From an uncultured Hormoscilla sp. (lineage in GTDB: Bacteria > Cyanobacteriota > Cyanobacteriia > Cyanobacteriales > Desertifilaceae), in contig OZ001293.3 in NCBI GenBank assembly GCA_963921275.4, forward strand, positions 5,632,001 to 5,696,000: DNA of 64,000 bases, written 5' to 3'. Positions within the stretch are counted from its first letter, which is position 1. The number at the start of each line of letters is the position of its first letter. This document shows positions 21,793 through 59,500 of this stretch, in pieces. The notes under the pieces are model-generated. The model made no database searches and was not told where the DNA came from. It saw only the letters and a list, made by a program, of their open reading frames with translations. The position numbers and the translations under genes were made by a program.

Positions 21793-24178
21793 ATTAAACT
21801 AAGCCAGGGAGTCACCTCTCCGAGGAGTCTTCAAAACCGGACGATCTGCTTTTCACCTCATCCGGCTCCTCAGTAATGCCATTCTTGTCACGGGTACGGC
21901 TACTGCCATCGCTGGCAGTCTTTGTGTCGTGGCAATGTTTATGCAACAGTTGTAGGTTGTCCCACCGGTCTTTGCCACCTAATGAAAGTGGTTTGATGTG
22001 GTCTACTTCCCACTTGTCGCTGTCCTTAAACGTCAATTCGCAGTGTTGGCATTTCCCTTTTTGCCTCTTGAGTAGCTTGGCTACTCTATTACTTATCTCT
22101 GGGTTTTTGCCTAGTCTTGTGCTCCAGTAGGTGAGGTTCCCGTCGTATGGGCTGGTTGTCCCTTTTACTTTGGTGTGTCGAACTATCTCTACACTTGCGT
22201 GCTTTAACAGTTGGATTTCTTTATTCTTGTCAGTCTGACACCGGAATCGCCACTGTTCATCCTGGTCTGCTGACCAGTATTTCTTGGCTATCCATTGTCT
22301 TGATTTATTGGGATGTCTTCTCTTAGCCCATTGCCACAGAATGTCCCATAGGTAGGTGTCCATGTCGCTGTAAGTTTCTTTACTTACTCCCGTCCTGAAG
22401 TAGTTTGACCATCCCCGTATTATTAGGTTTAGCCTGCTTATTAGGGCTTCTTGGGGTGCGGCGGCTGGTTACCACTTCTGCTAATCTCTCTTTATGCTTC
22501 CCTATGGACTTTTTACTGGGTTTGATAAGGGTTTTGAAACCTAGGGTTTTTCCGTTACATCTGCCACTTCTGTTCTTACTTACCTCGTATTGCCTTACAT
22601 TGAATCCTAGGAAATCAAATCCCGGGTTTTCTCCGTTCAGCGTATGAGATACTTTTGTTTTTTCGGGCTTTAGTTCTAGTCCTACCCCTTTTAGCCACTT
22701 CGCTATGACCGTTTGCGTTTCTTCTATCTTTTCTTTATTGTCATGCATTACCACAAAGTCATCTGCATATCTGACTACAGTCAGTTTTTTCTTTTCACTT
22801 TGTGTTTTTGCAAGCCCCATTATGGCCTCTTCTAACCCATGTAGGGCTATGTTAGCCAGTAACGGAGATATGACTCCTCCTTGTGGTGTACCCTCTTCGG
22901 TCGGATACCAGCTCCCTTTGTCTATCACCCCGGCTTTTAACCATGCCCGTATTTGCTTACGGATTGGTGATGTCGTATTCAGTTTTTCCATCAACGCTTT
23001 ATGGTCAATCTTATCGAAGCACTTCGCTATGTCAGCATCTAGTACCCATTTGGGTTTTTGGCGGATACTGATGAATATTGCTTCGATTGCGTCATGACAT
23101 CCCCTTCCCGGTCTGAAGCCATATGAGTTACCTTCAAAATACGCTTCCCATTCGGGCTCTAGTGCAATTTTCAGTAACCCTTGTGTCGAACGGTCGTACA
23201 TCGTTGGTATTCCTAGAGGACGCTTTTCGTCTCTTCCTGGCTTTGGTATCCATACACGACGTGCAGGTTTGGCCTTATTTGAGATATCTATTTGTCCTGC
23301 CAGTTCTAGACGCTGCTCTGGGGTTAACAATTTTACGCCATCCACACCGGCAGTTTTCTTTCCCTGGTTATCTTGTGTTACCTGTCGTACCGCTAGACTT
23401 TTGGCTGCCCGGGATTTTACCAGTAACCTCTGGAGTCTGCGAACTGTCCGCTTGTCGCCACGTTGTGCCGCTCTGTAAATTCGCTTTTGCAACTTGAAGA
23501 CTACTCGCTCCAGCTTACGCCAGGGGCTGTCCTTCCATTCATTCATCGATGTACTCATCGTGCTCATGACGTATACATTGCTACTTGCAACTTCACATTT
23601 TGACATTACCGTGAGGGCGTCAGCGTATCCTATCCATTACAGATAGGCGTTTGCTTCTCCTCTCAATCTTTCCCAGGCATGACCTGCCGTATGAGAGCAG
23701 ATGTTGCGCCATTGGTGGCTACTCTACCTATCGACCGGTGGTAGAGAGTACATGCCTGGTTTACTTCGTTCCTATAGACGATTGGTTGTAGTTTTAGATG
23801 GGTTCTTATATGCCGGGTTTGTTGCCGGTGCTTATTGGTCGGTCACTCATCCGCCAATGGCCATTATCCTTTCCCTTTTGGGCCAGCGTGTTCAGCCTGA
23901 TTACGCTGGTTCGTCATGACGACACTTATGAACCTTCGCTTGCACTCACCATAACTACTTGTTCGGCGATGACTGGCTTAGGCTGCTAGTCAGGGCGCCT
24001 TTCCTTCCCGCTTTACGGATTGATGCCATCGCTACCGTCGGGAGGGCACTGTCACGAGAGCACCTGGAGGGGTGGACTTTCACCACCATCATCTATAAGT
24101 TGTCAGGGCTAATGGAACCCTGCTAGTGGTCCCCCTTCTTGACCGGTGTCAAGTCGGTTTACACTAAACGAATCGCAC
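21793..24178 (-). mobile_element. Group II intron 1 (RT-encoding lineage, degenerate)
   Basis: 5' GTGCGATTCGTTTAG at 24178 and 3' GGCTTAGTTTAAT at 21793. Domain V GAGCCGGATGAGGTGAAA has a mutated 3' arm. Colinear with the introns at 40211 and 57045. Confidence 0.93.
21812..23606 (-). pseudogene. Group II intron RT/maturase/HNH, frameshifted near 22465
   Basis: PQGGVISPLLANI and YADD in 22380-23606. Maturase and HNH (WEVDHIKP...NLQLLHKHCH) in 21812-22363. Confidence 0.92.
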
Positions 24179-24226
24179 AAGTGACTAGATGCCGAGAGGA
24201 GAAGCACTGTGAATGCATAAGACACA

Positions 24227-24930
24227 ATGGAATGACCAGTTATGGCTGTTCAGCAGCTTATGAGTGGAAGAGGAGGACCGTAGATGGATGCATCTGACAC
24301 ATTGGAACAGCGAGTTCTGGAGATTCAAAAGCTTCCTCGTGGGAGCAATAAGCGTCGCCGAAAGTCGGCTAATTTACGACATTCAGAAATCAGACAAGCT
24401 ATTCTGTCAGGGGAGATTTAATTATCCCAAGGAGGTATTCGACGAGGCACTTTGGGAAACTTTGCCGGAAATTAGTAAGAAGATTGACCAGTACGATCCG
24501 ACTAAGGCGAAGGTGATGACTTGGGTTAATCGCATTTTAGAGTTTAAGTTCAAGGATGGGATTAAGAAATACAACAAGAGGCGAAAATAGAGCCAAAATA
24601 AACTGTCTTGGTATGCTCCTATCAACAACGATTCTAGCACTACATTGGGAGATATTATCCCTGCACATGAAGGCAAATCTTTTGTTTGCGAGCGCGTCTG
24701 AGACTATATTTACAACGATCCTGAAGATCTGTTTGCAACACATTAAGGGTCATCCCCGGGCGAACTATCGGTCGATCGCCCTCTTAGTCCTGGAGGGTTA
24801 CTCCTGGAAAAAGGTAATTTTAGCGGTGGGGATGCCCGAGTAAAAATGGTCTACAGTCCATATTTTTTACTGGCGATAATGCCAGAAGTTCGCTCCCAAG
24901 TTTCGGGAATATTTGCAGAATATGGAGGAC
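24227..24930 (+). pseudogene. Sigma-70-like factor relic of a sigma/DUF1822/CHAT module
   Basis: EALWETLPEISKKIDQYDP...VMTWVNRIL and HIKGHPRANYRSIAL fragments lie in different frames upstream of DUF1822. Confidence 0.55.
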
Positions 24931-24936
24931 GAGTAA

Positions 24937-25613
24937 TGAGTTGTCTAACAACTGAACCTTTGACTTTCACGGTTCCTATTACCAGGGATGTTTATCACCA
25001 GGCGGAGAACTTTAGTCGGGAACAAAAGCACCCTGAAAAAGCCCGATAGGTATATCTGAATACTTTGGCTGTTTCTGCTGTGGAGTTCTACTGTAAATGT
25101 ATGGAAGTGGAAACTGATTTGCAGGAAAGTGATAGCTGGAATCTTTCTTCACGCACTCTGATGGATGTGGTGGTAAAGTTACTACAATGGTTGGATGGAG
25201 TTTTTGAGGAGGGTTGGCAAGCAGTTGAGGAATTATGGGCACCCAGAAGTCAGCTAGGTTATGCTAGAAGTGCGAGTGGCTTCACGGTCAAACGGGCTAA
25301 AGTTATTGACTTGGGGTTACTCCTCAATGGCGAAACTGTGGCTTTAGTGGTAAATCTCCAGCATGAAGCTAATAATGAAGTTGGTATCCTGGTACAAGTT
25401 CAGCCTATGGGCGATCGACAACATCTGCCACCCGGTCTGAAGCTACAGGTTAATCTTGAGTCAGACAGTGCGGAAGTTGAGGCGAGGGAGGCTGACAAGT
25501 ACATTCAATTGGAATTTAGTCAGCGACCTGGGAGAAGGTTTAATGTTCAGATTTCCCTGGGAGATGGCATAATTACTGAAGAGTTTGCTGTTGAAGCCGC
25601 TAGGGCTGCTTAA
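24937..25613 (+). pseudogene. DUF1822 family protein with internal stop and deletion
   Basis: TAG at about 25047 followed by YLNTLAVSAV. Also LLQWLDGVFEEGWQ, KRAKVIDLG, HLPPGLKL, EAREADKYIQL. Confidence 0.8.
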
Positions 25614-25811
25614 TACCATTTTGGGAATAATGCTACAATTTTGGGGTGCATCTCATATTTGCGTCGCCGCCCCGCCCGAACCCTAAAGGGTCCGGCTACA
25701 CGAACAAAGCCCGCGCAAGCGGGCTAGATGAAAAAAGTGACATACACCCCAATTTTGAAGCATTATTATCTTAGTCGGTTTGAACCGACTTGAGCTAAAA
25801 GCCTTTGGGTT

Positions 25812-25918
25812 TGAACCCTCCGTGTCTCGTGGGTAGTGCGAGTACGATATCTCGTGGGTAGTGCGACGCAGGATCGCTCCCACGAGACATCGAGCGACCA
25901 CGAGACACGGAAGGCGGG
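25812..25918. mobile_element. Nested hairpin mini-element
   Basis: CCGTGTCTCGTGGGTAGTGCGAGTA ... CCACGAGACACGG. Same shell as 12018-12176 with a different inner unit. Confidence 0.8.
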
Positions 25919-26169
25919 CTAACAGCGAAGAGAGATAATTTTCGCGGAAGAAGTGCAGCAATATTTTCTACAAATGGTATAACAGATAATGGTTTCAGCT
26001 TTCCCGATACACCGGCGAAGGTTCAAAACCTCTGGCGGTGGCGGGATGGCAGGATGGCGGGATAATTGACAATGAGGCAAGATGAAAATTGATGTAAGAT
26101 TGATGTAAGATGTAAAATGAGGCAAGATGTAAAGTTGAACCGCTGGCGTGGCATCGGGCAAGGGTGAGG

Positions 26170-27416
26170 ATGGCAATGGAGAAACTGGCGATCTTGAAGC
26201 TGGGAAATGGTGATTTTGATGGCAGGTTCCTAGTGGCCATCGAAATTCATCAGTTGGGAAAAAATGGACAGCATGAAATCCATAAATTAGATGGCCAGTT
26301 ACCCCCATGCCCAAAATTGACTGGCCTTTATCAGAATTGGCAGAAACAATATAGAGGTTTGCTTCATTCTGCTAGGGAAGGCTTCAAAAAAGCTCAAGTC
26401 ACTCAGGTTTCGGTTACGGAATGCGAAGATTTCTTCTTACGCGCCAGTCTCAACCGGTGGCTTGACTCGGAGGAATTTCGCTCGACCAAGAAACTGTTAG
26501 AAGAATCTCTCAGTCAGGAACCGCCGCCGGAAATTAGTTTCGTTATCCAAACGGATGCGATCGCCTCAGATGCCACCAAGGACATCTTACACCGACTGCC
26601 CTGGCATGGGCGGGATTTGTTTCCGAAAAACTGGCAAGTGGAAACAGCTATCAGTTTCCGGGATGGGGAAGCGAGTTTTCAAGATTCCCACAGTTCGCCT
26701 GAATCAGGTAGAATAAGAGATGTCAAAATCTTAGGCATCCTGGGGGATAGTGGGGGCATCGATGTTAAGGCTGACGAACAAGTAATTAGCCAGTTACCAG
26801 TCGCCTCTGTTTCTGAGCCAGCCAAAACGAGCAGATTTTGCCCGACTCAGATCATAGCGAGACTGAAGGGGACGGTCAAACTGGCTTGCTCGATATTAAT
26901 CCCGACGATCGGCTGAACATTGAGGAAATCAGAAGGACTCTCACAGTAGCTTGGGAGCGGGGTTTGAAGTTAGCAATTTTCAACTCCTGTGATGGGCTAG
27001 GCTTGGCGCGGCAACTAGCGGACTTAAACATCCCCCAGATCGTTGTTTGGCGGGAACCAGTGCCAGATTTAGTGGCGCAAAAGTTTCTGAAATATTTTCT
27101 GACATCCTTTGCTGGGGGTAATTCTCTATATAGGGACAAGTTACGAGAACTCGAACCTGAGATTGAGGAGCAACTACCGAGGGTAACTGCATTGCCTGTC
27201 ATTTGTCAAAATCTGGCGGACGAACCTGTCACTTGGAAGAAGTTGAGAGAATGCAGTGGTGACAGCACCAGTAGTGATGACCCGAAGCCAGTGAATTGGC
27301 TCAATCAGATGATCGTGTCTGTTGGGATAAAAATTATCTTGTTAGGGATGACGATGACAATGGTAGGAATTACCTTATCATTTACAATGAATATCAACAT
27401 CATCTCAATCAAATAA
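26170..27416 (+). pseudogene. CHAT domain protein, frameshifted/deleted
   Basis: KLAILKLGNGDF, LHRLPWH and ILGILGDSGGID, then GLKLAIFNSCDGLGLARQL and LPVICQN in a second frame. Confidence 0.82.
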
Positions 27417-27503
27417 TTATATACTGGTAGACAAGGGACTGACAGTTTGCCCCCAACTACTAGCCATCGGTCAAACTAGGTTCTTTTTGAGGGATACGAG
27501 TTT

Positions 27504-27887
27504 TTGCAGAATCGAGATTATGACAGGGCTGAAGAAAAATTCAACCAGGCGAGAATGCGGGAACCTAAATCCCCAGACCCTTGGTACTGGAAAGCTCAAC
27601 TGGCTCTCGCAAGAGAAAACAAACCCGTCGCACTAAAATATACTGATAAAGCTTTGAAGCTGGAACCAAATCATTTGCATAGTTTGGTGCTAAAAATTAA
27701 ACTTATGTTATTGAATGGCGGTCATGACTTAGTCAATGCTTTAGCAATAGCAACCAAGAGTCACAGGAGATCAGAGGAACTAGATTCATGGTTGAATTGT
27801 TTGGAGAGAGAAAAAGTTTTTTTGTCTTCGTTGAATACAGATTCGGAATTAGATGCAAAATGTCCCCTTCCCATCTACAAATGGTAA
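27504..27887 (+). CDS. TPR-containing protein (fragment)
   Basis: YDRAEEKFNQA...PDPWYWKA...ALKLEPNH. Confidence 0.6.
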   Translation: MQNRDYDRAEEKFNQARMREPKSPDPWYWKAQLALARENKPVALKYTDKALKLEPNHLHSLVLKIKLMLLNGGHDLVNALAIATKSHRRSEELDSWLNCLEREKVFLSSLNTDSELDAKCPLPIYKW

Positions 27888-27905
27888 ATAATTGAGGAAT
27901 GTACC

Positions 27906-28935
27906 ATGAGTGCCAAGAAAATGATTCGTCGTTTATTATTGAGTGTTTCGATTTTATCAGCAGGACTAGGAATAATTTATTTATTATTATCGTCCATGTG
28001 GCTGTATAGACTAAGCTCTCCCCCAGTGGGCCGCCAAGCACCCCCAGTAAAGCAAAGACGCCCAGCACACCCTACCTCAGCATCCCCTCATGATTTACCC
28101 CTAACCAACAAAACTCAGCCATTGCCCCATGATGGCTTATTTATCAGAAGAAAAAATGAGTTCGGCACGAAACTTGATGTAGGAATCAAAGACTTGATTG
28201 ACCAAGGGGTCTTGATCGATCAAACTCTCATTCGCTTCGATGACTTTATAGTATCAAATAGCGATCGCGTGCCCCTGCCTCAATCAGGTCAATCTCTTGC
28301 GGTCAGCTATGGCATAGCACCAATTCCCCTGAGCCAAAAGCGCGACGATCGAGCTACCCATTATTTAGAGATTGCCTTAAGAGCATCGGATGTAGCTCCC
28401 GCAGGACATAGCAAAACTAAAGCCCCACCAGTTAATTACATTTTTGTGATTGATACCAATGGGTCGATGTCAGGAGAAAAATTAGACACCGTCAAAGCCG
28501 CAATTCGAGAGCTATTTAAGAGAATGAGGAAAAACGATGTTCTGGGGATTGTCGAATTTAATAACCAGCCGAGAACCCTGTTAAAGGCGACCCCTGTGGG
28601 AAAAATTTCCCGCAAAGAATTCAGCCGAATCATCAGTAATATCACCGCCGATGGCGGGACGGACCTCAACATCGGTCTATCATATGGCATCGATGAGATC
28701 GGTCGTTATGAAAGTGACGCCTCTTTGAATCACATCTTTTTGTTTTCAGATGGCCAGCCCACTTCAGGAGAAAGAGACTGGATTAAAATTCGGCAAAACG
28801 TGGATAAGAAAACGCGGGGAGATATCCGCTTATCAACATTTGCCTTCGGTGCAGATGCCAATACCAGGGAACTGGATGCCTTAGCCAGTCTAACGGGAGA
28901 AAAATTCAGTTTTATCGCAGACCCCACAGACACCG
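27906..28935 (+). pseudogene. von Willebrand factor type A domain protein, 3'-truncated
   Basis: FVIDTNGSMSGEKL MIDAS-like motif, GGTD, LFSDGQPTSG. The sequence switches to Uma2-derived DNA at about 28935. Confidence 0.8.
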
Positions 28936-29203
28936 GTTCGATATGTCGGGGGAGTCGTTACAACTGTACTGTCCGAATGGGGAAGCATTTGCGACCTATT
29001 GGGAGATAAAAAAACAACTCAAACAGACACAGCAGGAGCGAGAATGGGAGCGCAAGCAAAAGGAACTTGCTCTACAACAAGTTCAGCAGACACAGCAGGA
29101 GCTAGAATTAGAGCGTCAGGAAAAGGAACTTGCTCTACAAGAAGTTCAGCGTTTAAAAGAGTTGCTGCTTGCAGCTCGTATTGACCCGGATACAATTAAT
29201 TGA
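28935..29203 (+). pseudogene. Uma2/DUF820 C-terminal fragment
   Basis: RFDMSGESLQLY...coiled coil...LLAARIDPD, homologous to 33770-33977. Confidence 0.8.
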
Positions 29204-29377
29204 ACTCGGGAAAATGCTCCCGGAAGATGATGCTGTAGGGGCGGTTTCAAGGCGGCACTAAGTGCCGCCCTGGTCCTCCGGGGGACAGAACCGCCCGATC
29301 GCACCCGTACCAGAAAGCCCTATCGCTGCTAAAATGGAATCGGAAAGGCGATCGCAATTTGGGCGATCGGTCCGACG

Positions 29378-29930
29378 ATGGAAGAACAGCAGCAAGATAA
29401 ACAGTCGTTGGAGGAGGTAACAGTAGTGGAAATGCAAGGAACAAAAGCCGGAGAAATAATCTATCCCGAAAGCGATGGAAAACCAATAGCAGATAATACG
29501 GTCCAGTTCCGCTGGATAACGAAGATATATTCTAATCTGGAGTCGCTATTTGCTGACAATCCCAACGTATTTATAGCCGGGGACTTGTTATGGTATCCAG
29601 TAGAAGGGGATAATCCAGATGGATGGTTGGGTAAGCCCCCGGTTGCATATTCGGTTCGATATGTCGGGAGAGTCGTTACAACTGTACCGTCCGAATGGGA
29701 AAGCATTTGCGACTTATTTGGAAATCAGCAAACAACTAGAACAGACACAGAAGGAACTAGAATTGGTGCGTCAGAAAAAGGAACTCGATCGAAAGCTAGA
29801 ATTGGCGCATCAGGAAAAGCAAAGGTTAAAAGAGTTGCTCCTAGCGGCTGGAATTAACCCAGATAAATTGATTGAACTGGGGAAAATGCTCCCGGAAGAT
29901 GAGCGCCAAGCCCGATCGCTGATAAAATGA
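29378..29930 (+). pseudogene. Uma2/DUF820 endonuclease with internal deletion
   Basis: IIYPESDGKPIADNTVQF...GDLLWYPVEG jumps directly to the DGWVSPRL region in another frame. Confidence 0.82.
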
Positions 29931-30238
29931 AATAAATAATCTGTAGGAGATCCCAGATGAGAGCGATCTTGCGCAACAGGAATTATTAACGATCTCGGAC
30001 TTATATCTCTAGACAAACCCCTAGAGATAACTCCTCCAAACAGCAGAGGATCCTGACGATGAAAGCATAGAGTCGGTAAAAGTTCCTCTGCGCCGGTCCT
30101 TAGCAGAAGCTAAAGAGGGAAAACGCTTACCCATTGCTCAATTGTGGTGGGGAATTGATGCAAAATGAACCGCCTTCTCGACTAAATCTGTAGCAGGAGT
30201 AGGCCCGATAGTCTATGACAGGACAGGAGGGCGATCTC

Positions 30239-30760: not shown

Positions 30761-31138
30761 GCATCTTACTCTCCCTTCAGGAGATATCTAAATGAGGCAA
30801 CGGCGTCAAGAGTTGAAAGCACAGTTACTCAAATGATGCTTAAGTCAGTGCCATTCGTTGTAGGGTGGGTTAGCGTTCGCGCGTAACCCACCGCACCCAT
30901 AGCGCGTAACCCACCGCGCCCGTCACCGGTTGTAGGCGATCGGGTTTGACGACAACGGTGGGTGACGGAAGGGGCCGTCGGTGGAGGGGCGATCGGGAAT
31001 TGATACGAACTGAACGGGATATCTCAATGATACTCTCGATCAATGGTCCTCCCGCTTGCTCGGCGCCCGACGCTCGTGCAAGAGCGCAATCATGAGTTAT
31101 AATGTGATTGCTCTCCCAACAGCAAGCAGGAGCAAAAC

Positions 31139-40210: not shown

Positions 40211-42608
40211 ATTAAACTAAGCCAGTCCGTCACCGGACCGACTCGTCTTCAAAACCGGACATGAGACTTTCGCCTCATCCTGCTCCTCGGTCACGCCACC
40301 CTTGTCATGGGTACGGCTACTGCCATCGCTGGCAGTCTTTTTGTCGTGGCAGTGTTTGTGTAGCAACTGTAGGTTGTCATACCGGTCCTTACCTCCTAGT
40401 GAAAGGGGCATGATATGGTCAACTTCCCATTTGTCACTATCCATAAACGTTAGTCCGCACTGTTGGCATTTTCCCTTTTGCTGCTTGAGTAGCGTTGCTA
40501 CCCTTTTACTCAGTTCGGGGCTTTTGCCTAATCTTGTGCTCCAATATGTGAGGTTCCCGTCGTATGGGCTTGCGGTCCCTTTCACTTTTACGTGTCTGAT
40601 TATCTCAGTTTCGGAGTGTTTACGTATCTTCATATCACCCTCTTTTGTCTTGCTTCGGAATCGCCATTTAGCATCCTGGTTTACAGACCAGTATTTATAG
40701 GTTATCCAGTTACTTGACTTGTTAGGGTGCCTCCTTTTGGCCCATTGCCATAGGATGTTCCATAGGTAGTTGTCCATATCGCTGTAAATTTCCTTGCTTA
40801 CCACTGTCCTAAAGTAGTTTGACCATCCCCTTATTATCGGGTTTAGCCTGCTTATTAGGGCCGCTTGTGGTGCTGTTATATGGCTAGTTACCATTTCTGA
40901 TAACCGTTCTTTATGCTTCCCTATGGACTTATTACTGGGTTTGATTAGGGTTTTGAATCCTAGGGGTGTTCCGTTTGTTGATTTGCCGGTTCTGTATTTT
41001 CCCTCTTTATATTGCCTTATATTGAATCCTAGGAAGTCGAATCCCGGGTTTTCTCCATTTAGCCTGTGGGCTATCTTTGTCTTTTCAGCCTTCAACTCAA
41101 GCCCTATTCTTCTTAGCCACTCTGCCACCACTGTTTGCGCTCTGTCTATCATCTCCCTGTCTTCATGCATGATCACAAAGTCGTCTGCGTATCTGACTAC
41201 CGTCAGCTTTTGCTTTTCCCTTTGTGTCTTTGCTAATTCCATTACTGCTTCCTCTAACCCCTGTAGGGCTATATTGGCTAGCAGTGGGGATATGACACCC
41301 CCTTGTGGCGTTCCTGCCTCAGTTGTGTGCCATATCTTCTTGTCAATCACCCCGGCTTTTAACCATGCCCGTACTTGTTTACGGATTGGTGACGTAGTAT
41401 TTAATTTTTCGACTAGCGCTTTGTGGTCTATCCTGTCGAAACATTTCGCAATATCTGCATCTAATACCCATTTGGGTTTCTGTTTAATGCTGCTGAATAT
41501 TGCCGCAATTGCATCGTGGCATCCCCGACCCGGTCTGAATCCGTATGAGTTCCCCTCCATATATGCTTCCCATTCGGGTTCGAGCGCAATCTTGAGGAGC
41601 CCTTGATTCGCGCGGTCGTGCATCGTGGGTATTCCTAAAGGACGTTTTTCTTCTCTCCCTGGCTTAGGAATCCATACACGACGTGTAGGCTTAGCCTTGT
41701 TTGAGATTTCAATCTGTCCTACCAGTTCTCGGCGTTGCTTTGGGGTTAGTGATTTCACACCATCCACACCGGCTGTCTTCTTTCCCTGGTTATCTTGTGT
41801 AACCCGTCGTACCGCTAGACATTTGGCAGCCCGGGAGCTTACCAGTAACCTTTGGAGCCTGCGAACTTTTTGCTTATTGCCTTCTTGTGCCGCTCTGTAA
41901 ATTCGTTTTTGCAACTTAAAGACTACCCGTTCCAGCCGAGGCCAGGGGATATCCTTCCATTCATTCATCGATTTTGACATCGTGCTCATGACGTATGTAT
42001 TGCTACTTACAACTTTACAATTGACGTTACCGTGAGGGCGTCAGCATATCCCATCCATTACAGAAAGGCGTTAGCTTCTCCGCGAAATCTTTCCCAGATA
42101 TAACCTGCCGAATGTAAGCAGATGTTGCGCCTTTGGTGGCTGCTCAACCTATCGACCGGTGGTTGAGAGTATGTACCTGGTTTACTTCGTTCCTCTAGAT
42201 GATTGGTCGTAGTTTTAGGTGGATTCCTTATGCCGGGTTTATTGTCGGTGCTTATTGGTCAGAATTCAAACCGCCAATGACCATTATCCTTTCCCTTTTG
42301 GGCCAGCGTGTTTAGCCTTATTACGCTGGTTTGTCGTAACGACACTGTAAATCTTTGCTTTCGCTCACCGTGACTACTTGCACGCTGCGCGAAAAATCGG
42401 CGATGACCGGTTTAGGCTACCAGCCAGGGCGCCTTTCGTACCCGCTTCACGGATTGATGCCATCGCTACCGTGGGGTAAGTGCTGTCACTCCTGCACCTG
42501 GAGGGGTGGGCTTTCACCACCATCATCTAAAAGTTATCAAGGCTAATGGAGCCTTGCCAGTGGTCCCCCTTCGGTTATCACCGGTGGTTTACACTGAACG
42601 AGTCGCAC
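40211..42608 (-). mobile_element. Group II intron 2 (RT-encoding, intact ORF)
   Basis: 5' GTGCGACTCGTTCAG at 42608, domain V GAGCAGGATGAGGCGAAAGTCTCATGTCCGGTTT, 3' GGCTTAGTTTAAT at 40211. Confidence 0.95.
40217..41989 (-). CDS. ltrA: Group II intron reverse transcriptase/maturase with HNH endonuclease
   Basis: 590 aa. RPLGIPT, PQGGVISPLLANI, YADD, GWSNYF, CxxC/HNH tail. Confidence 0.95.
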   Translation of the reverse strand: MSTMSKSMNEWKDIPWPRLERVVFKLQKRIYRAAQEGNKQKVRRLQRLLVSSRAAKCLAVRRVTQDNQGKKTAGVDGVKSLTPKQRRELVGQIEISNKAKPTRRVWIPKPGREEKRPLGIPTMHDRANQGLLKIALEPEWEAYMEGNSYGFRPGRGCHDAIAAIFSSIKQKPKWVLDADIAKCFDRIDHKALVEKLNTTSPIRKQVRAWLKAGVIDKKIWHTTEAGTPQGGVISPLLANIALQGLEEAVMELAKTQREKQKLTVVRYADDFVIMHEDREMIDRAQTVVAEWLRRIGLELKAEKTKIAHRLNGENPGFDFLGFNIRQYKEGKYRTGKSTNGTPLGFKTLIKPSNKSIGKHKERLSEMVTSHITAPQAALISRLNPIIRGWSNYFRTVVSKEIYSDMDNYLWNILWQWAKRRHPNKSSNWITYKYWSVNQDAKWRFRSKTKEGDMKIRKHSETEIIRHVKVKGTASPYDGNLTYWSTRLGKSPELSKRVATLLKQQKGKCQQCGLTFMDSDKWEVDHIMPLSLGGKDRYDNLQLLHKHCHDKKTASDGSSRTHDKGGVTEEQDEAKVSCPVLKTSRSGDGLA

Positions 42609-42953
42609 TAAATCGCCGACATTACACCGATTACAGTCCCAAGCAGATGTCGCTAATGAGAGTCCTGCTCCTATACAATCTACAACAGAACTGCGTTGTC
42701 AGTTGTTAGTTGTGGGTTGTTAGTTGTTAGTTACTCGTTGTTCCTTGGCTGCTGACCACCGATCGCCTACCTCTAATACAACTAGCCACTGACTACTGAC
42801 CACTGACTTGCGATCGTCAAGGGGGGCTGCCTTGTCTGCACTAGCAAACCATACAGCCCCAGTACTTACGCAACTTTTTCCGTCCTAGACTGCCGATAGC
42901 CTCGGGCTAGCCCAGAGTTGTGTAAGTCCTCAGTTCTTGGCGACCAACTAGCC

Positions 42954-43242: not shown

Positions 43243-44077
<835 letters not shown>

Positions 44078-48977: not shown

Positions 48978-48981
48978 AGTT

Positions 48982-49698: not shown

Positions 49699-49734
49699 TG
49701 AGATGATTGGTTTTCAACAGAAAAAAGATGATCA

Positions 49735-50331: not shown

Positions 50332-50374
50332 ATTAACAATTTATTTGTGTGAGTAAATAATACCCATTAGACAT

Positions 50375-51268
50375 ATGCTCAAAGAAAATGAAGATTTGCA
50401 GCTTGAAGTTAGTGCGCGGGTGCGAGTGCTGAGTGAAGCGCTGCCCTATATGCAACAGTTTGCGGGTCGGACTGTGGTGGTCAAGTACGGGGGGGCGGCG
50501 ATGAAAGATAGCACTCTCAAAGATAAGGTGATGCGGGATATTGTATTTTTGTCCTGCGTTGGCGTGCGTCCGGTGTTGGTGCATGGTGGCGGTCCGGAAA
50601 TTAATACCTGGCTGGGTAAACTAGGCATTGAACCACAATTTAAGAATGGTCTGCGGGTGACGGATGCGGACACGATGGAAGTTGTGGAAATGGTCCTGGT
50701 GGGGCGGGTGAATAAAGAAATTGTCTCTCTGATTAATACGGCTGGGGGAAAGGCGATCGGGCTGTGCGGTAAAGATGGTAATTTGATCTGCGCTCGCCCG
50801 CAAGGTGCTGAAGGTATTGGTTTTGTCGGGGAAGTCAGCAGCGTGGATACCCAAATTTTGCAGTCCCTGGTCAACAGTGGCTATATTCCCGTAGTCTCAA
50901 GTGTGGCAGCAGATGAAACGGGACAGGCTTATAATATCAATGCTGACACGGTGGCCGGGGAGTTAGCAGCGGCCCTGGGGGCGGAAAAGCTGATTTTGCT
51001 GACGGATACTGCTGGAATTTTGCAGGACTATAAAGACCCATCAACCCTGATCTATAAATTAGACATTCAACAGGCGCGAAGTCTGATAGAAAAAGGGGTG
51101 GTGGCTGGTGGGATGATTCCTAAGGTGAATTGCTGCGTGCGGAGTCTGGCTCAAGGTGTGCGGGCTGCTCACATTATCGATGGTCGCATGCCCCACGCTC
51201 TGTTGCTGGAAATCTTTACTGACTCTGGGATCGGCTCGATGATCGTTGCCTCGGAATTCATGAGTTAA
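50375..51268 (+). CDS. argB: Acetylglutamate kinase
   Basis: [31 protein letters not shown]. Confidence 0.97.
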
Positions 51269-51336
51269 TAGCGTAGGACGGGCGGATCGCCTGTCAGCGT
51301 AGGACGGGCGGATCGCCTGTCAGGGAGAAGCGTAGG

Positions 51337-51852
51337 GTGAAGACAGAAAGTTTAGAGATTGTCAAGGATAACTACGAGGCGGGCAAAAATGCCTTTGAGC
51401 GCGGTCAGTACAGCGCCTCAGTTGAGTATTTGGAAAAAGCGAGTGGCCTAGTTAATCCCAATTCTCAACTGGGAGGAGATGTGCTTCTGTGGCTGGCGAT
51501 CGCCTATGAGGCTGCCAGTAAGCAAGCAGAGGCGCGGGCGGTTTGTCAGCAGTTGCAATCTCATCCCAGTCTGGAAGCCCGCAAAGAAGGTAAGCGCTTA
51601 CTCTATATTCTGGAAGCACCCCAGCTAAAGAGACCGGAAGCATGGATGAGCAAAATCCCGGATTTAGGCTCAATGTCGGAAAGTGAGGTAAAATATCGGC
51701 GGGGTGCTGGTGTTGCTAAAAGCGGCACATCCCAGGGGCGGGTTGAACCGGAAGCAGATTTAACTCAGGTAAATAGGGAAGATAATCGATTTATCTGGGT
51801 GGCTCTGATTGTAGCAAGTCTGACAATCTGCGGTTTTATTTTGCTAAGTTAG
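51337..51852 (+). CDS. TPR-like membrane-anchored protein
   Basis: YEAGKNAFERGQY, LLYILEAPQL, C-terminal TM segment. Confidence 0.75.
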   Translation: MKTESLEIVKDNYEAGKNAFERGQYSASVEYLEKASGLVNPNSQLGGDVLLWLAIAYEAASKQAEARAVCQQLQSHPSLEARKEGKRLLYILEAPQLKRPEAWMSKIPDLGSMSESEVKYRRGAGVAKSGTSQGRVEPEADLTQVNREDNRFIWVALIVASLTICGFILLS

Positions 51853-51869
51853 TAGGAAGGGAAAAGGTA

Positions 51870-52604
51870 ATGATCGTGCAGAGGCAAAAGTCAGTTATCC
51901 GTTTTCTGGTCCCGGTTTATATTTTACTTTTGACAATGCTGACAGGCTGCGTCGAATATGACATTGGGGTCCAGATGAATAGTCAGACTCATGGGGAAAT
52001 AGTACAGCAGATTCAGCTGAAAGATCAGCTAAATCTTTTTAGTCGGGCGACGCTGCAAACATGGTTAGATAGCATTGACGAACGGGTGCGCCAGTTGGAA
52101 GGCAAAACAGAGATGCTTTCTGACCAGGCTATGAATGTGATTATTCCTTTTAATAATGGGGCGGAATTGGCTGTGAAGTTCAACAGTTTTTTTAATCCCT
52201 ATGAGCGGCCAGCTAATTATAATAATAATGAGGCGGATTTATCTTTACTTTCATCAAATTTGGAGGTAGCCCAAAATAATTTTATCTTGGCGCTCCGCAA
52301 TCACTTGCAACTAGATTTGGATTTGCGATCGCTCGCTGTGGTCTCAGCTGATGACGAAGTATTGCTGAGTCCGGATAGGTTTTTGGCTCTGAAATTTGGC
52401 CTGACTACTCCTTGGGGGGCAAAAATAATTGGCGATGATACCCGGAGATCGGGAAATCAGCTAGTCTGGACACTGGAACAGGGTAAACTAAATCATATTG
52501 AAGCGATATTCTGGGTTCCCAGTCCGATCGGAATTGGTGCTTTGATAATTATTATGTTGGTAGCAGGGGGAACATATTTGAAAGAGGGAAAGGTGAAGAG
52601 TTGA
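51870..52604 (+). CDS. DUF3153 family lipoprotein
   Basis: LTGCVEYD lipobox, LDLRSL, IEAIFWVPSPIGIG. Confidence 0.8.
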   Translation: MIVQRQKSVIRFLVPVYILLLTMLTGCVEYDIGVQMNSQTHGEIVQQIQLKDQLNLFSRATLQTWLDSIDERVRQLEGKTEMLSDQAMNVIIPFNNGAELAVKFNSFFNPYERPANYNNNEADLSLLSSNLEVAQNNFILALRNHLQLDLDLRSLAVVSADDEVLLSPDRFLALKFGLTTPWGAKIIGDDTRRSGNQLVWTLEQGKLNHIEAIFWVPSPIGIGALIIIMLVAGGTYLKEGKVKS

Positions 52605-52634
52605 GAATAGAGAATAGAGAATAGAGAATAGAAA

Positions 52635-53564
52635 ATGGAATCATTAAAAGGACGAGATTTATTGAGTTTGGCAGACCTAAGTGCTAGGGAATTGAACTCA
52701 CTGTTAGAACTGGCGGCGCAACTGAAAAAGGGTAAGGTAAAATGGCGCTGCAATAAGGTGCTGGGACTGTTATTTTCTAAAGCTTCTACCCGGACTCGGG
52801 TGAGTTTGACTCTGGCAATGTATCAATTAGGAGGTCAGGTAATTGACCTGCTTCCTAATGTAACCCAAGTTAGTCGGGGAGAACCGCTGATCGATACAGC
52901 AAGGGTTTTAGAGCGATATCTAAATGTTTTGGCAATTAGAACTTTTGAGCAGCAAGATTTAGAAACTTTTGCTGAATATGCTAAGATTCCAGTGATTAAT
53001 GCGCTGACAGATAGAGAGCATCCTTGTCAGATATTGGCTGATTTATTGACGATCAAAGAATGCTTTTGCAATCTGGAAGGTAGGACTTTAACTTATGTGG
53101 GAGATGGAAATAATGTGGCGCACTCATTACTGTTAGGTTGTGTACTGGCGGGGATGAATGTGAGAGTGGCGACGCCGCCGAAGTTTGAGCCGAATGGTGA
53201 AATTGTGGCCCAGGCGCGTCAAATGGCGGCGGGACGCACGGAAGTGATGATAACCACAGACCCAGTGGCAGCAGTAACGGGCAGTCAGGTGGTTTATACT
53301 GATGTTTGGGCTAGTATGGGACAGGAAGCTTCTGCGGGCGATCGTTTGCCAGTTTTTCAGCCTTATCAGGTGAATAAAGCACTGTTAGCTAAAACGGATC
53401 CAAAGGCGATCGTGCTCCATTGTTTGCCAGCCCATCGGGGAGAAGAAATTACTGATGAGGTGATGGAAGGTTCTCAATCACGAATATGGGACCAGGCCGA
53501 AAATCGATTGCACGCCCAAAAGGCTTTACTGGCAAGTATTCTGGGGAATGAATTGAGCAATTGA
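52635..53564 (+). CDS. argF: Ornithine carbamoyltransferase
   Basis: STRTR, HPCQILAD, YTDVWASMG, HCLPAHRG. Confidence 0.97.
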   Translation: MESLKGRDLLSLADLSARELNSLLELAAQLKKGKVKWRCNKVLGLLFSKASTRTRVSLTLAMYQLGGQVIDLLPNVTQVSRGEPLIDTARVLERYLNVLAIRTFEQQDLETFAEYAKIPVINALTDREHPCQILADLLTIKECFCNLEGRTLTYVGDGNNVAHSLLLGCVLAGMNVRVATPPKFEPNGEIVAQARQMAAGRTEVMITTDPVAAVTGSQVVYTDVWASMGQEASAGDRLPVFQPYQVNKALLAKTDPKAIVLHCLPAHRGEEITDEVMEGSQSRIWDQAENRLHAQKALLASILGNELSN

Positions 53565-53721
53565 GAATTGAGAATTGAGAATTGAGAATTGAGAATTGAG
53601 TTTAGTAAGTTGGGTTTCGTGCCTCAACCCAACCTACAGTTACTGAAATTTATATTATGGGCATTAAACCGGAGATGGGCAGGCGATCCGCCCGCCCTAC
53701 GCAAAAAATAACTGACAAATA

Positions 53722-55356
53722 ATGAGTGAAGTCCTGCTTTCTGTGGAAAATCTTCGAGTCGCTTATCCCCAACTTCACGGAACACCTAGTTGGGCGGTGG
53801 ATGATGTCTCTTTCACTCTCAAACCTGGAGAAAGATTGGGTTTGGTGGGAGAATCGGGTTGTGGTAAGTCTACTCTGGGACGTGCGGTGATGCGACTTTT
53901 ACCAACTGGTTCTCGCCTGGAAGGACGGGTAACTTTTGCGGGGGAGTCGGTATTTGATCTTTCTCCAACACAGTTGCGCCGCTTTCGTGGAGAAGCAGTG
54001 GCGCTGGTGTTTCAAGACCCGATGACTCGTCTGGATCCTTTGATGACCATCGGGGACCATTGTCTGGAAACTCTGCGATCGCACGAACCCCAACTTTCGC
54101 GCCGTCAAGCAAAGCAAAGAGCAATTTCTACTTTGTCGGCGGTGAACATTCCTGCCGATCGGTGGGGACAGTATCCTCACGAGTTTAGTGGTGGCATGCA
54201 ACAGCGGGTGGCGATCGCTCTCGCATTGGTGCTGAAGCCAAAACTAATTGTTGCCGACGAACCCACTACTAGCTTGGATGTGACGGTAGCGGCACAAATT
54301 CTCCAGGAACTGACGCGCCTCTGTCAAGAACGGGAAATGGCGCTGCTGTTAATTTCCCACGATCTGGCAACGATCGGAGAGTATTGCGATCGAATTGCGG
54401 TGATGTATGCCGGTCAGATCGTGGAAATGGGCGCTACTCAACAAGTGCTGCAACATCCCGAACATGAGTATACCCGATCGCTCTTGGCAACTGCACTCCA
54501 CATTCAAGCCGTCTCCGATAGAATCTCAGAAGTCAAAACTGACAATTCGCCCCTACTGCGGGTTACCGACTTACAGCAGCATTATACCTTGGAGGGCAAT
54601 TTTGTCGAACAGCTGTTTCGCAAAAACACTCCTGTAATTAAAGCAGTGGATGGAGTCAGCTTAGAATTATATCCTGGGGAGATTCTGGGATTAGTCGGAG
54701 AATCTGGTTGCGGCAAAAGTACCCTTTCTCGCAGCATTTTACAGCTTGTTCGCCCCACAGGTGGCAAGGTCGAGTTTCTTGGAGTTAATTTAACGAAAGC
54801 TTCACCTCGCAGACTGCGAGGGTGGCGCAGACAAATGCAAATGGTATTTCAAGACCCCCATGCTTGTCTAAATCCCTTGATGACCGTGGGACAAAGTATA
54901 GCAGACCCACTGTTTATCCACAAGTTGGCTACCCCTGCTGAGGCCAAAGCACGAGTAATATCCATGTTAGAAAGAGTCGGGTTAACTCCAACTGCTGATT
55001 ATTATCATAGATATCCCGGTGAGTTGTCTGGAGGACAGCAGCAACGAGTCGCGATCGCCCGGGCTTTAATTACCCGTCCGCAACTGCTGATCTGCGACGA
55101 ACCTGTCAGCATGCTAGATGCCAGCGTCCAGTCCCAAGTCCTAGATTTAATGTTAGAACTAAAACGGGATTTTGACCTCACTTATCTGTTTATTACTCAC
55201 AACCTCTGGGTGGCCAGGTTTCTGTGCGATCGCATTGCCGTGATGAACCAAGGTAAGATTGTCGAACTCGGTTCCACTCATGATATCTTTACCAACCCTC
55301 AGCACCCTTACACTCAAACTCTGTTGCAAGCTGCTCCTTTACTTGCGAATTGTTAA
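53722..55356 (+). CDS. Oligopeptide-type ABC transporter ATP-binding protein (two ATPase domains)
   Basis: Two GESGCGKS Walker A motifs, FSGGMQQR and [12 protein letters not shown]. Confidence 0.93.
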
Positions 55357-55950
55357 TTGTTGATTGTTGATTGTTAATCGTGCAACACGACATGCTCATT
55401 CATCTCTGTGGTTTGTTAGATGATGGAGGCTTTGCCAGTCCCTTGAATGTAAAGGATGAAGATTGGCAACCAATCAGACTCCATCTGATTCAAGTTAATG
55501 ATGATGATAATTTTGTAGCATATATTGATGCGCTCCATGAATACGCAGATGAGCCCTCCCAAACCTGCCCAAGGAAACTGGCTTCAAGTAGCCTTCAGTC
55601 AGGGTTGGTGGAGACATAGTTTGGGTGCATCCCATTTTTGTAATTTTGCGTAGCGTTAGGGGCGAGCCCGCTGAATTTTATTCCTCTTCGTCGTATCGGT
55701 GAGGTTGGGGGAAGGGAACAGGGAACAGGGAACAGGGAACTTTTAACAGGGAAACAGGAGAACAGGGGCTCCCGGGACGGCGGGGGCGGTGGGGGGATCG
55801 CTAGCGAGCAGAATAACATCAATTGATGCCTTATTTTTGATACTCCCCCAAAGCTTGGATGCGCCCCTTCGGCCCCGACAGCTTTTGCAGGACAACCCCA
55901 CCATAGCTAGTCGCAACTCTGGCTAACGTCGGTTGGGGGTTGGGAGTGTT

Positions 55951-56116
55951 GACCTATAATAAATTGATTTCGACCTATAATAAATCGATTATAATATATA
56001 ATAAACTTAGTATAAATATGACTAAATTAATTATAACATATAATCGATTTATTCATATTTATACTAAGTTTATTCATATCCATACTAAGTCTATTCTGAC
56101 ATATAATAGATTCTTA
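55951..56116 (+). repeat. Degenerate AT-rich 21-bp periodic repeat, 8 units
   Basis: ACCTATAATAAATTGATTTCG-like units, translating as TYNKLIS/TYNKSII/IYNKLSI/NMTKLII/TYNRFIH/IYTKFIH/IHTKSIL/TYNRFLS. Confidence 0.75.
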
Positions 56117-56558
56117 TCCGAACAGATAAGGGAGACTCAGACTTAAAGTCGGGACAACCCGTTCCGAGCTAGGCTTCTAGCCCACAGGGACGTGCTTGCC
56201 GCTCGCGCGAGCGCCTCAATGTCACGCTTTTACGTTGGTAGCCCATTTTTCTCTTTTTTTTTTCCAAGTCACCTTGTCTCTCTTGTCTTCCAAGTCACCT
56301 TGTCTCCCTTGTCTGGTCACTGCCTCTTTGTAAAAAACCTACCCTTGTAAGCCTCCCCCTCCCCCCACACCGGAGGAAGCTCCCACACCTCCCACACTCC
56401 CCTCCCCCAATCTCCGGATACGCCCCTTCGCCAGGGTTAAGATAGCCCGCCCCGTAACGGGTTTCAGAGCAAAAATGAGATGCTCCAATTAGCAATTAGC
56501 AATTAACCATTCTCAATTTTTAACAAAGGGTTGTCAGAGTGGGAAGAGATAGAGTATA

Positions 56559-59500
56559 ATGGAGGGAGAGGGAGGAAGAAGACTCCCCCAGGCCAGAGCA
56601 GCGATCGCCCGCAAGCAACCCGATATTATCCTCTTGGATCTAGGCTTTCCCGAACAGGCAAAAAACGGGTTTCAACTGTTAGCGGAACAGACTCAATCCC
56701 CCGTGCCTGTGTTAGTATTTACTGATCGAGAGAGCTTGATTGACCGGGTAAAAGTGGCTCGTTTGGGAGCACGGGGCTTTCTCCAGAAACCTATATCTAC
56801 AGCGCAAATTATGGAGGCGATCGCTCAAGTTATGGAAAAAACGGACCCGACCGTGGCCAAGCTGCTGATTGTAGACGATGACCCTCAGATGCTAGACCTG
56901 CTGCGCGCAGTATTAGAACCTTGGGGATTTACAATCACCCTGCCAAACGACGCCAAGCAGTTCTGGAATACCCTAGAACAATCGGCTCCCGATTTGCTGA
57001 TTTTAAATGTAGAAATGCCAGAGTTTAGCGGGATAGACCTGTGCGTGCGATTCGTTTAGCGTAAACCTACTTGACACGTGTCAAGAAAGGGAGACCGCTA
57101 CCAGGGTTCCATTAGCCCCGAGAACTTACAGGTGATGGTGGTGAAAGTCCACTCCTTCAGGTGCAGAAGTGAAAGCACTATCCCTACGGTAGAAATGGCA
57201 TCAATCCGTAAAGCGGGATAGAAAGGCGCTATAACTGGCAGCCCAAAACCGGTCAACGCCGATTTTTCGCGCAGCGTGCAAGTAACATGATGAGCGAAAG
57301 CAAAGGTTTGCAGCGTCGTCACTATCAACCAGTGTAATAAGGCTGACACACTGGCCCAAAAGGGAAAGGATACTGGTCATTGGCGGATGTACAGCCGACC
57401 AATAAGCACTGACAACAAACCCGGCGTATAGAACCCATCTAAAGTTACGACCAATCATCTGTAGGAACGAAGTAAACCGGTTGTAGACTCTCCATCACCG
57501 GTCGATAGATGGAGTAGCCACCACAGGCGCAACATCTGCTTTCATCTGGCAGGTCACAACTGGGAAAGATTAAGTAGAGAAGCAAATGGCCACCGGTAAT
57601 AGGTGGTATAGGCTGACGCCCTCATGGTTTCGTCAATTGTGAAGTTGTAAGTAGCAGTGAATATGTCACGGAACATCGTCGATAGACAAGTGTATGACTG
57701 GAAGGCCGTCCCTTGGCGAAAGCTAGAAAGGGTAGTTTTTAAGCTGCAAAAACGAATTTACAGAGCGGCACAGGAAGGCAACTTGCAGTTAGTTCGCAAG
57801 CTCCAAGGGTTACTGAATAGGTCATGGTCCGCCAAGATGATAGCGGTTCGGCAGGTAACACAACAGAACCAGGGAAAGAAGACAGCTGGTGTGGATGGTG
57901 TAACAGCACTAACCCCAAAACAACGACAAGAACTGGTAGGTCAACTCAAAGTCACCAGAGAAGCAAAGGCAAAACCCACACGTCGAGTGTGGATACCCAA
58001 GCCAGGAAGGGACGAAAAGCGGCCACTAGTAAGACCGACGATACACGACCGCGCACTTCAGAGATTGGTCAAACAGTCGCTAGAGCCCGAATGGGAAGCG
58101 TACATGGAAGCCAACTCCTACGGATTCAGACGCCCGAGAGGATGCCACGATGCGATCGAAGCGATATTCAATAGCATCAGATACAAACCCAAGTGGGTTC
58201 TAGACGCCGATATTGCCAAATGTTTCGACAAAATTGACCACTCAGCACTCCTAGAGAAATTGAATACAACATCACCAATCCGTAGACAGATACGGGCATG
58301 GTTAAAAGCCGGAGTGATGGACCAGGGAATATGGCAGGACACAGAAGCCGGAACTCCTCAAGGTGGGGTAATATCACCACTGCTGGCCAATATAGCCCTA
58401 CATGGGTTGGAAAAGGTAGTGATGAGTCTTGCCCACACAAAGAGTGAGAAAAGTAAACTAACAATAGTCAGATACGCCGACGATTTTGTGGTAATGCACG
58501 ATGACCGGTCAATGATTGAGCGGGTACAAGGAGTAATTGAGGAGTGGTTAAGAGGGATAGGACTAGAGTTGAAAGCCGAGAAAACCCAAATATCTCACAC
58601 GCTAGAAGGAGAAAACTCAGGATTTGATTTCTTAGGGTTCAACATCCGACAATATGCAGTAGGGAAACACAGAAGCGGTAAACTCACCAACGGAACCCCC
58701 CTAGGATTCAAAACCCTAATCAAACCTAGCGATAAATCCATTAGGAATCATAAAGAGCAACTATCACAGATAGTTCGCCGCCATAAATCGACACCACAAA
58801 CAGCCTTGATAGCCAAACTAAACCCAATGATCAGGGGGTGGAGCAACTACTTCAAGACGGTGGTAAGTAAGTTTCCTTACACCGACATGGACAAATACCT
58901 ATGGGAGCTGCTATGGCAATGGGCAAAAAGAAGGCATCCCAACAAAACGGGCAAATGGATTGCCAGTAAATATTGGGCCATAACCGGGAAAGACCGGTGG
59001 AGGTTCACGGGCAAATCAAAAGAAAATGGAGAAATAAAGCTAAACCGGCACTCTGAAACTGAGATAATCAGACACACAAAGGTAAAAGGGACAGCTAGCC
59101 CGTTTGACGGTAACCTAGTCTACTGGAGCCAGAGATTAAGAAAGAGCCCGGACGTAAGCACGAGAGTGATTAACCTACTCAAGAGGCAGGAGGGCAAGTG
59201 CCAGCATTGCGGACTAACGTTTAAGAACGGCGACAAATGGGAAGTGGACCACATTCTGCCAACCTCACTGGGAGGAAAGGACTGGTACTCCAACCTACAG
59301 TTGCTACACGATTACTGCCATGATTATAAGTCTGCCAGAGATGGCAGCAAAGGCCGTATCCATGACAAGGATGACGAAACTGAGGAGCCGGATGAGGTGA
59401 AAGTCTCACGTCCGGTTTTGAAGACGAGTCGGTACGGTGACGTACTGGCTTAGTTTAATAAAGTAGTGCGCAATGACCCACATTGGAATGATTTGCCCGT

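Follow-up and report, generated by a model that had tools for sequence, protein, structure and literature searches.

How can one genome come to hold many related mobile introns, each matched to a different insertion site? We addressed this question in a 64,000-nt stretch of DNA from an uncultured Hormoscilla sp. (assembly GCA_963921275.4, contig OZ001293.3, positions 5,632,001 to 5,696,000; hereafter, the window), which carries three introns of the reverse transcriptase (RT)-encoding type, numbered 1, 2 and 4. A first-pass annotation had described these as paralogs, each retargeted through a different exon-binding site 1 (EBS1). We consider it probable (roughly 0.8) that they are group IIB retroelement introns with guides matched to their own flanks, which would have spread by waves of retrohoming with minimal reading of a purine at target position -15 by the protein. 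In the known mechanism, the choice of site depends on RNA-DNA pairing, the protein assists in opening the duplex, and the insertion is made permanent by HNH-primed reverse transcription (PMC2882425, PMC8643678); here and below, statements on published systems refer to the accessible text of the papers cited. The source genome is denoted G000 and its chromosome C1; G001-G004 are relatives from the genus, and G028 belongs to the same order and another family. The RT-type introns, with their intron-binding sites (IBS), are as follows.

21793..24178, minus strand: intron 1, RT-type group IIB intron, 2386 nt
23843..23848, minus: intron 1 EBS1, GAGTGA; EBS2 at 23912-23916, EBS2a C at 23918, EBS3 T at 23808
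24179..24184, minus: intron 1 IBS1, TCACTT, end of the 5' exon; base -15 is G
21812..23606, minus: intron 1 protein in two frames, RVT_N and RT at 22380-23606, maturase end and HNH at 21812-22363
23082-23084: codon at the residue-173 position of intron 1, Glu
40211..42608, minus: intron 2, RT-type group IIB intron, 2398 nt, one of nine near-identical copies, in non-coding DNA
42263..42268, minus: intron 2 EBS1, TGAATT; EBS2 at 42332-42336, EBS2a T at 42338, EBS3 A at 42228
42609..42614, minus: intron 2 IBS1, GATTTA; base -15 is A
40217..41989, minus: intron 2 protein, 590 aa, intact RVT_N-RT(YADD)-maturase-HNH; Ala at residue 173, codon 41504-41506
57045..59459, plus: intron 4, RT-type group IIB intron, 2415 nt, in sense within a signalling gene
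57389..57394, plus: intron 4 EBS1, GTACAG; EBS2 at 57322-57326, EBS2a C at 57320, EBS3 T at 57429
57657..59453, plus: intron 4 protein, 598 aa, intact RVT_N-RT(YADD)-maturase-HNH; Glu at residue 173, codon 58158-58160; base -15 is G
56559..57044, plus: 5' exon of the intron 4 host gene (receiver domains), ending in IBS1 CTGTGC
59460..60146, plus: 3' exon of the host gene (rest of receiver domain and GGDEF)

Guide loops and their target sites

All three introns start with GTGCG and end with AAT, and the domains in their open reading frames (ORFs) are RVT_N, RVT_1, GIIM and HNH. They are thus real RT-type group II paralogs, as first described, except that the ORF of intron 1 is frameshifted near residue 372. 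The picture of one intron retargeted through EBS1 alone does not hold: the three are only 74.5-81.1% identical overall, fall in different parts of the ORF tree, and differ from one another in EBS1 and EBS2 and also at residue 173, intron 2 being set further apart by its EBS2a and EBS3. Intron 1 is probably inactive, because its ORF is frameshifted, its upper domain V is altered, and its EBS2 pairs at 3/5 positions; it also scores below the gathering threshold of RF00029, which introns 2 and 4 and the ORF-less intron 3 (described below) reach. In intron 4, every exon-binding pairing is satisfied, and its excision in silico yields a single open frame of 390 aa encoding a receiver-GGDEF protein. 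A query with this site found matches in 2/4 relatives, namely, an exact empty site in G001 (locus L001) and, in G003, a match that ends before the junction; an empty-site search for introns 1 and 2 found none. From its sequence, intron 4 appears the best candidate in the window for an active element and for a targetron.

The loops and the exon ends proposed to face them were both correctly located by the first-pass annotation, and each loop forms 6/6 base pairs with its own 5' exon when G-U pairs are allowed (1, 2 and 1 such pairs in introns 1, 2 and 4, respectively). Pairing the three loops with each other's exons gives 1-4/6, and the chance that a random genomic hexamer pairs at 6/6 is 0.0047, 0.0047 and 0.0013 for the loops of introns 1, 2 and 4. 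In 61-nt local folds each loop forms the 8-nt terminal loop of the same hairpin, but these hairpins are no more stable than shuffled sequences (z -0.7 to 0.0). Local stability was therefore dropped as proof, and the EBS1 assignment rests on covariation.

For this purpose we aligned 73 RT-lineage 5' regions, dropped five for low identity or coverage, and compared each alignment column of the remaining 68 copies, which occupy 63 unique sites, with each flank position from -22 to +8. Fourteen column-flank pairs exceeded z 5, the next best reaching 3.6. Six loop positions covary with -1 to -6 (z 5.1-8.0), so that an unbiased scan selects as EBS1 the very loop that had been named, and five EBS2 positions covary with -9 to -13. 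The column 2 nt before EBS2 is complementary to -14 at 42/63 sites (19.0 expected), a pairing satisfied in introns 1, 2 and 4; we rejected it as a novelty, given that it is the published EBS2a (PMC8643678). Column 385, EBS3, is complementary to +1 at 42/52 sites (18.1 expected). A second column (266) also tracks +1 (z 5.1).

The suggestion of a family with diversified targets was borne out: among the 68 copies, EBS1 takes 33 different forms, including a variant with a 2-nt deletion. Cognate EBS1 pairing over the 63 sites averages 4.86/6, compared to 2.57 +/- 0.15 in 5,000 permutations, and 47/63 sites pair at 5 or 6 positions; with one site for each of the 32 families defined at a 96% cut, the values are 5.25 and 2.52, and for EBS2 they are 3.63 and 1.98. 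The result was replicated in G002 and G004, where, of the 60 loci matching best, 44 showed a simple 5' end and provided 40 unique sites (5.3 against 2.71). Complementarity of the copies to their own exons is thus found genome-wide; the refuting outcome named in the first-pass annotation, copies that lack it, is seen in one family, that of intron 2, where 6/9 copies are mismatched, as considered below. The presence of near-identical copies at numerous different sites that match their guides implies that mobility was recent, as far as can be judged from sequence. Under the proposed mechanism, each new set of EBS1, EBS2, EBS2a and EBS3 guides would open new target sites, in successive waves of retrohoming.

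Lineage of the introns and the reading of base -15

These introns likely belong to the IIB2/CL2 lineage. The best match of the intron RT in PDB is the Thermosynechococcus elongatus intron RT 6ME0 (E 5e-107, 362 bits), which has a 16-residue gap at the RKYG..K motif; the IIB2-type RT insertion is therefore present, about 16 extra residues at this motif marking IIB2/CL2 RTs as opposed to IIB1 in the supplement of PMC8643678. CL2 introns are described as almost exclusively cyanobacterial (PMC4424553). A free-energy fold of the first 516 nt of intron 4, which is not a curated model, contains two extra 5' hairpins (z -2.2). The 25 best plasmid matches are all cyanobacterial ltrA-type RTs (592-697 bits) from Oscillatoria, Tolypothrix, Nostoc and Acaryochloris, which share the domain order but are only 51-59% identical. 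The family works like TeI4 of T. elongatus but is not a member of it: TeI4 members are 84-100% identical at the protein level and have the IIB1 motif length, neither of which is the case here, and the match to 6ME0 scores 362 bits (in a different program from the plasmid comparison). The 3' ends of RT-type introns are AT in 55/59 and AC in 4/59.

The protein contact was examined through RT residue 173, proposed by Monachello et al. 2021 (PMC8643678) as the reader of base -15, with Glu accompanying G, and Ser, Ala or Gly accompanying A. We mapped this residue, using PDB 6ME0 and the supplement of that paper, to X in the motif CHDAI-X-AIF. Beyond the RNA-paired positions, only -15 is clearly biased over the 63 sites (A 32, G 18, T 9, C 4, that is, a purine in 50/63); in the flanks from -16 to -24 and from +2 to +10 there is no strong conservation, T at +5 (22/52) being weak after multiple testing. 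The window introns combine Glu with G (introns 1 and 4) and Ala with A (intron 2). Among the purine sites of G000, Glu occurs with G 13 times and with A 3 times, and a small residue (Ala/Gly) with G 0 times and with A 20 times; the 40 sites of G002 and G004 show the same association (Glu:G 20, Glu:A 2, small:A 6, small:G 0), as do sites with EBS2 in register counted once per family across the three genomes (38 families: Glu:G 13, Glu:A 1, small:G 0, small:A 17). In a tree of the 28 of these families that have a full-length sequence the residue class changes 10 times, and among independent pairs on well-supported branches 7-8/8 are concordant and 0 opposed (sign test p 0.008-0.016). The earlier proposal of relaxed protein-level recognition is therefore only partly right: recognition looks minimal, and the RT is predicted to read little beyond the purine at -15, but the contact appears retuned rather than lost, because the purine used follows residue 173. 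The pairs are those of the published correlation (PMC8643678), Glu-G and small-A, together with EBS2a-(-14); that correlation spans bacterial introns of many species, whereas here there are at least 10 toggles among the close paralogs of one genus.

The same rule bears on introns that encode no protein, two of which lie in the window in addition to the three introns originally reported.

43243..44077, plus: intron 3, ORF-less group II intron, 835 nt, of a 75-copy family; ends in CU, one base past the Rfam match
about 43564-43569, plus: putative intron 3 EBS1, TGCACT
60867..61793, plus: fifth intron, ORF-less, 927 nt, of a 17-copy family; EBS1 TGCCTC against exon end GAGGCA

A sixth candidate at 13571 (minus) was rejected, its 5' motif lying within a tRNA-synthetase ORF (12578-14419) and the downstream sequence not being intron-like. 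In the two largest ORF-less families of the genome (144 and 75 members), EBS1 reads AGACTC and TGCACT, respectively, in agreement with the flank consensus of each, and the base favoured at -15 is A (A 81 against G 1 over 113 sites; A 39 against G 2 over 59 sites). By the residue-173 rule, this preference predicts an Ala/Gly-173 helper, for example, the intron-2 family or the 9-copy GTATAC family, the Ala families with the most intact copies (4 and 8, respectively); intron-encoded RTs would then mobilise more than 300 ORF-less introns in trans. The 3' ends of ORF-less introns are CC in 201 and CT in 98 of 324, not AY, in a register fixed by 64 exact empty sites, and the presumed gamma position and the final base of these introns vary in step (G with C, A with T).

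Several observations count against retrohoming with self-matched guides and a minimal protein contact. EBS1 pairing is at most 3 at 9/63 sites; IBS2 is frequently one or two bases off register; 27/63 sites of G000 fall outside the two-by-two table of residue and base (residue unreadable, Lys/Gln, or a pyrimidine at -15); and three Glu sites of one family have C at -15. Recombination between paralogs weakens the independence drawn from the tree, the direct contact of residue 173 with DNA is a published correlation combined with a density-map argument (PMC8643678), and the helper assignment hangs on a single base.

Two broader alternatives must be weighed against these data. It seems highly improbable that protein recognition is fully relaxed and that the -15/173 pattern reflects shared ancestry: the lack of strong conservation in the outer flanks would fit this, but a purine at 50/63 sites would not, nor would residue and base switching together in nearly all independent pairs and never oppositely. 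Guide diversity could also have been imported by repeated horizontal transfer of distinct introns, each homing to its own ancestral type of target. Such import would agree with the low identity among introns 1, 2 and 4 and with the single EBS1 string common to G000 and the 40 sites sampled in G002 and G004, as well as with the avoidance of GATC in intron ORFs, such as foreign DNA might display. After codon shuffling in G000, G002 and G004, GATC in intron ORFs is observed 16 times against 89, and 37 against 177, and RGATCY 0 times against 15, whereas in host ORFs GATC is enriched (616 against 520) through HIP1. The best plasmid matches, however, are below 60% identical at the protein level compared to 64-88% within the genus, which points to diversification inside the lineage, and two observations indicate change inside G000 itself: the two loop alleles of the intron-2 family, described below, and mosaic ORFs, seen in 4/276 representative pairs that are 97-100% identical in one segment and 77-87% elsewhere, one of them involving the RT0-2a region of the intron-2 family. 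We therefore regard import as quite unlikely. In our preferred scenario of retrohoming, recombination between paralogs would shuffle guide loops and ORF segments. The avoidance of GATC possibly reflects selection against cutting of fresh unmethylated intron copies. Under a Markov model introns also seemed, to a striking degree, to avoid palindromes in general, but this reading was discarded when codon shuffling gave a ratio of 0.80 in G000 intron ORFs, close to the host value of 0.84; what remains after codon shuffling is GATC/RGATCY and a subset of hexamers.

The intron-2 family and its mismatched guide

The nine copies of the intron-2 family share an essentially identical domain I, and the eight complete ones differ at 26 columns. 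The loop reads TTTGAATT in 3/9 and TTCCTTTT in 6/9, EBS1 TGAATT being replaced by CCTTTT in the latter. All nine flanks nevertheless fit TGAATT better than CCTTTT: those of the six CCTTTT copies pair at 29/36 positions with TGAATT (null 15.2; 0/200,000 draws reach 29) and at 8/36 with their own loop. The loop TTCCTTTC occurs in a diverged paralog, located at C1:823942, which matches the intron-2 family perfectly along an extended arm on the upstream side of the loop; its own site fits CCTTTT at 6/6. The guide loop was thus likely overwritten after insertion by gene conversion, judging from these sequences; a short conversion from the paralog at C1:823942 would have been followed by spread among the near-identical intron-2 copies. 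Sequence transfer between intron subgroups within one genome is also reported for Hamiltonella c-Ha.de.I1 (PMC3522654), where the tract is ~700 bp and the text describes no effect on EBS, whereas here the tract would span no more than about 65 nt, with the guide loop exchanged.

Other copies bear on the history of these sequences. The C1 copies 402444 and 437963 have private ORF variants in common but different loops, which requires either recombination or mis-assembly. The pairs 402444/4106536 and 726973/1670429 have a common 3' flank or the last 20 bases of the 5' flank in common and are otherwise different, which suggests rearrangement through introns. A chimeric intron at G000:C1:3244012 combines an ATATTC-family EBS1 hairpin with the 5' part and flank of the TCTGGA family and is the second instance in which guide and site do not fit. 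In addition, recurrent short substitutions in domains V/VI of several copies, including intron 1 (~21830-21870), disturb helices and are perhaps further short conversion tracts.

The mismatch could instead be an artefact of assembly or polishing that mixed near-identical repeats. The intron-2 copies are more than 99% identical, their single-nucleotide variants show all four gametes with the loop, as mis-assembly would also produce, and the loop lies 340 nt inside the repeat, so that contigs cannot tie it to a flank. We consider this explanation unlikely, given that contigs from each of the four read runs (X1-X4) include the CCTTTT loop within its intron-2 surroundings, with coverage close to that of the adjacent family contig (348 against 378; 478 against 520), although depth is a rough hint, and that, with all nine flanks favouring TGAATT, the assembly provides no site suited to an intron-2-family copy with CCTTTT. 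The TGAATT allele was not seen in contigs of these runs, which drop rarer variants, and neither loop allele of intron 2 was found in the relatives (0/5 genomes). A more specific driver is also conceivable: the GAATTC in the TGAATT loop would be cut, when unmethylated, by an EcoRI-like enzyme and repaired from a site-free copy, giving the CCTTTT allele. In line with this idea, the 410 kb of complete introns contain GAATTC 4 times, 2 of these within the TGAATT loop, host ORFs contain 13 against 33 expected, and the assembly encodes an EcoRI-family methylase. Yet relative to codon-shuffled sequences intron ORFs show no clear GAATTC depletion (1 against 3.0; 5 against 5.9), the chromosome retains 1,334 sites (ratio 0.74), unlike truly avoided words, the methylase gene is on the small contig C6 next to genes judged by eye to be phage-like, and no EcoRI endonuclease match was obtained in a search whose control also matched nowhere; this scenario is very unlikely in our estimation. 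The methylase (L063, G000:C6:11060-12085, on a 42-kb contig) is an adenine methylase whose neighbours resemble lysozyme, holin and an HNH protein, and it is possibly a phage orphan. Among words in C1, GTCGAC, ACGCGT, CGTACG, GTGCAC and TTCGAA are almost wholly avoided (ratios 0.02-0.11) and HIP1 GCGATCGC is abundant, and G000 carries several DNA methylase genes.

Returning to conversion of the guide loop, the CCTTTT copies are predicted not to splice, but none of the complete intron-2 copies (0/8) breaks a long frame, so the host would probably suffer little if splicing were lost. Tentatively, and with considerable reserve, the conversion can be extended to a model in which guide modules are swapped by short conversion tracts that use the conserved arms on either side of the EBS1 loop, accompanied by flips at residue 173 that set the base at -15, such that the sweep of a foreign loop through most of the intron-2 family would disarm the RNA while the Ala-173 protein would still splice and move the hundreds of ORF-less introns with a preference for A at -15.

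Intron load and comparison with known systems

A domain V/VI profile built from the window's own introns gave 476 matches at E 0.01, all on C1. Iterative excision of complete introns from C1, which yields lower bounds, counted at least 383, comprising 324 with an ORF-less-type end and 59 with an RT-type end and occupying 5.97% of C1; in the broken copies left after excision there are 78 strict 5' motifs and 110 domain V matches, and intron-like DNA as a whole makes up 7.75% of C1. There are 47 full-length RT-type copies, 30 of which have an open frame of at least 555 codons and a YADD motif. Among the complete introns, 44/383 are nested in other introns and 36/383 break long frames in antisense. 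Sense insertions in frames of at least 150 codons account for 5/59 RT-type introns (intron 4 among them) and 73/324 ORF-less-type introns, compared to 104/400 random points on a given strand. Exact empty sites elsewhere in the assembly, each in a single register, were found for 4/26 simple RT-type and 64/292 simple ORF-less copies. Contig C3 of G000 (31 kb, 17.6% G+C against 47% for the genome) is likely foreign to the assembly.

Exact 5' motifs number 94-148 in three of the four genus relatives and 2 in the remaining one. G028 (3.8 Mb, single contig) has at least 87 RF00029 matches and only 5 of the 5' motif used in this study, possibly an independent large intron expansion.

Published counts of 28 in T. 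elongatus (PMC2882425), 101 (PMC8919778) and at least 150 (PMC2853384) all lie below the minimum of 383 complete introns counted here. The latter two refer to Arthrospira platensis, with at least 150 introns, 71 of them with an RT, in one study, and 101 by pipeline, the maximum of 1,790 representative genomes, in the other. It is a cyanobacterium with a genome of similar size and a large load of CL-type and ORF-less introns; the total here is about 2.5-3 times higher through ORF-less copies, and the 47 full-length RT-coding copies do not exceed 71. The closest parallel is with TeI4/TeI3 of T. elongatus (PMC2882425), which likewise has families set apart by diverged EBS1, EBS2 and EBS3, ORF-less derivatives outnumbering RT-coding introns, nested introns, minimal protein recognition centred on -15, and few insertions in genes. 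The parallel with EBS diversification in that species was thus well drawn, the guide-switching mechanism being the same known one, but the T. elongatus introns are CL1/IIB1, in a thermophile with 28 copies in 6 families (2 with an ORF) that are 85-100% identical. Here, there are at least 383 complete copies and 32 RT-type families, about 75-100% identical, with features of IIB2 type and with ORF-less ends mostly CC or CU. Literature searches on non-canonical 3' ends, restriction avoidance, chimeric EBS recombination and sponge-symbiont cyanobacteria with introns returned nothing relevant, and one on EBS1 and gene conversion returned no guide replacement by title or start of abstract; most subscription papers lay outside these searches.

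The mechanism is already known, and the family is an unusually large case of it, the three introns by themselves establishing no new principle. What is added is the scale, the repeated switching of residue 173, and the apparent overwrite of a guide loop. A single genome with 33 guide variants and natural Glu, Ala and Gly at residue 173 makes the published prediction for -15 directly testable, toggling among close paralogs providing natural near-matched pairs, and an IIB2 element could widen the choice of targetron sites, with intron 4 as the obvious starting point. The load of at least 383 complete introns bears on how introns multiply within a cell. If real, the overwrite of the guide loop would show how new specificities originate and how a host could keep a maturase while losing the mobile RNA; if modules are indeed swapped as outlined above, the system would have moved closer to having a splicing factor that is shared and kept by the host.

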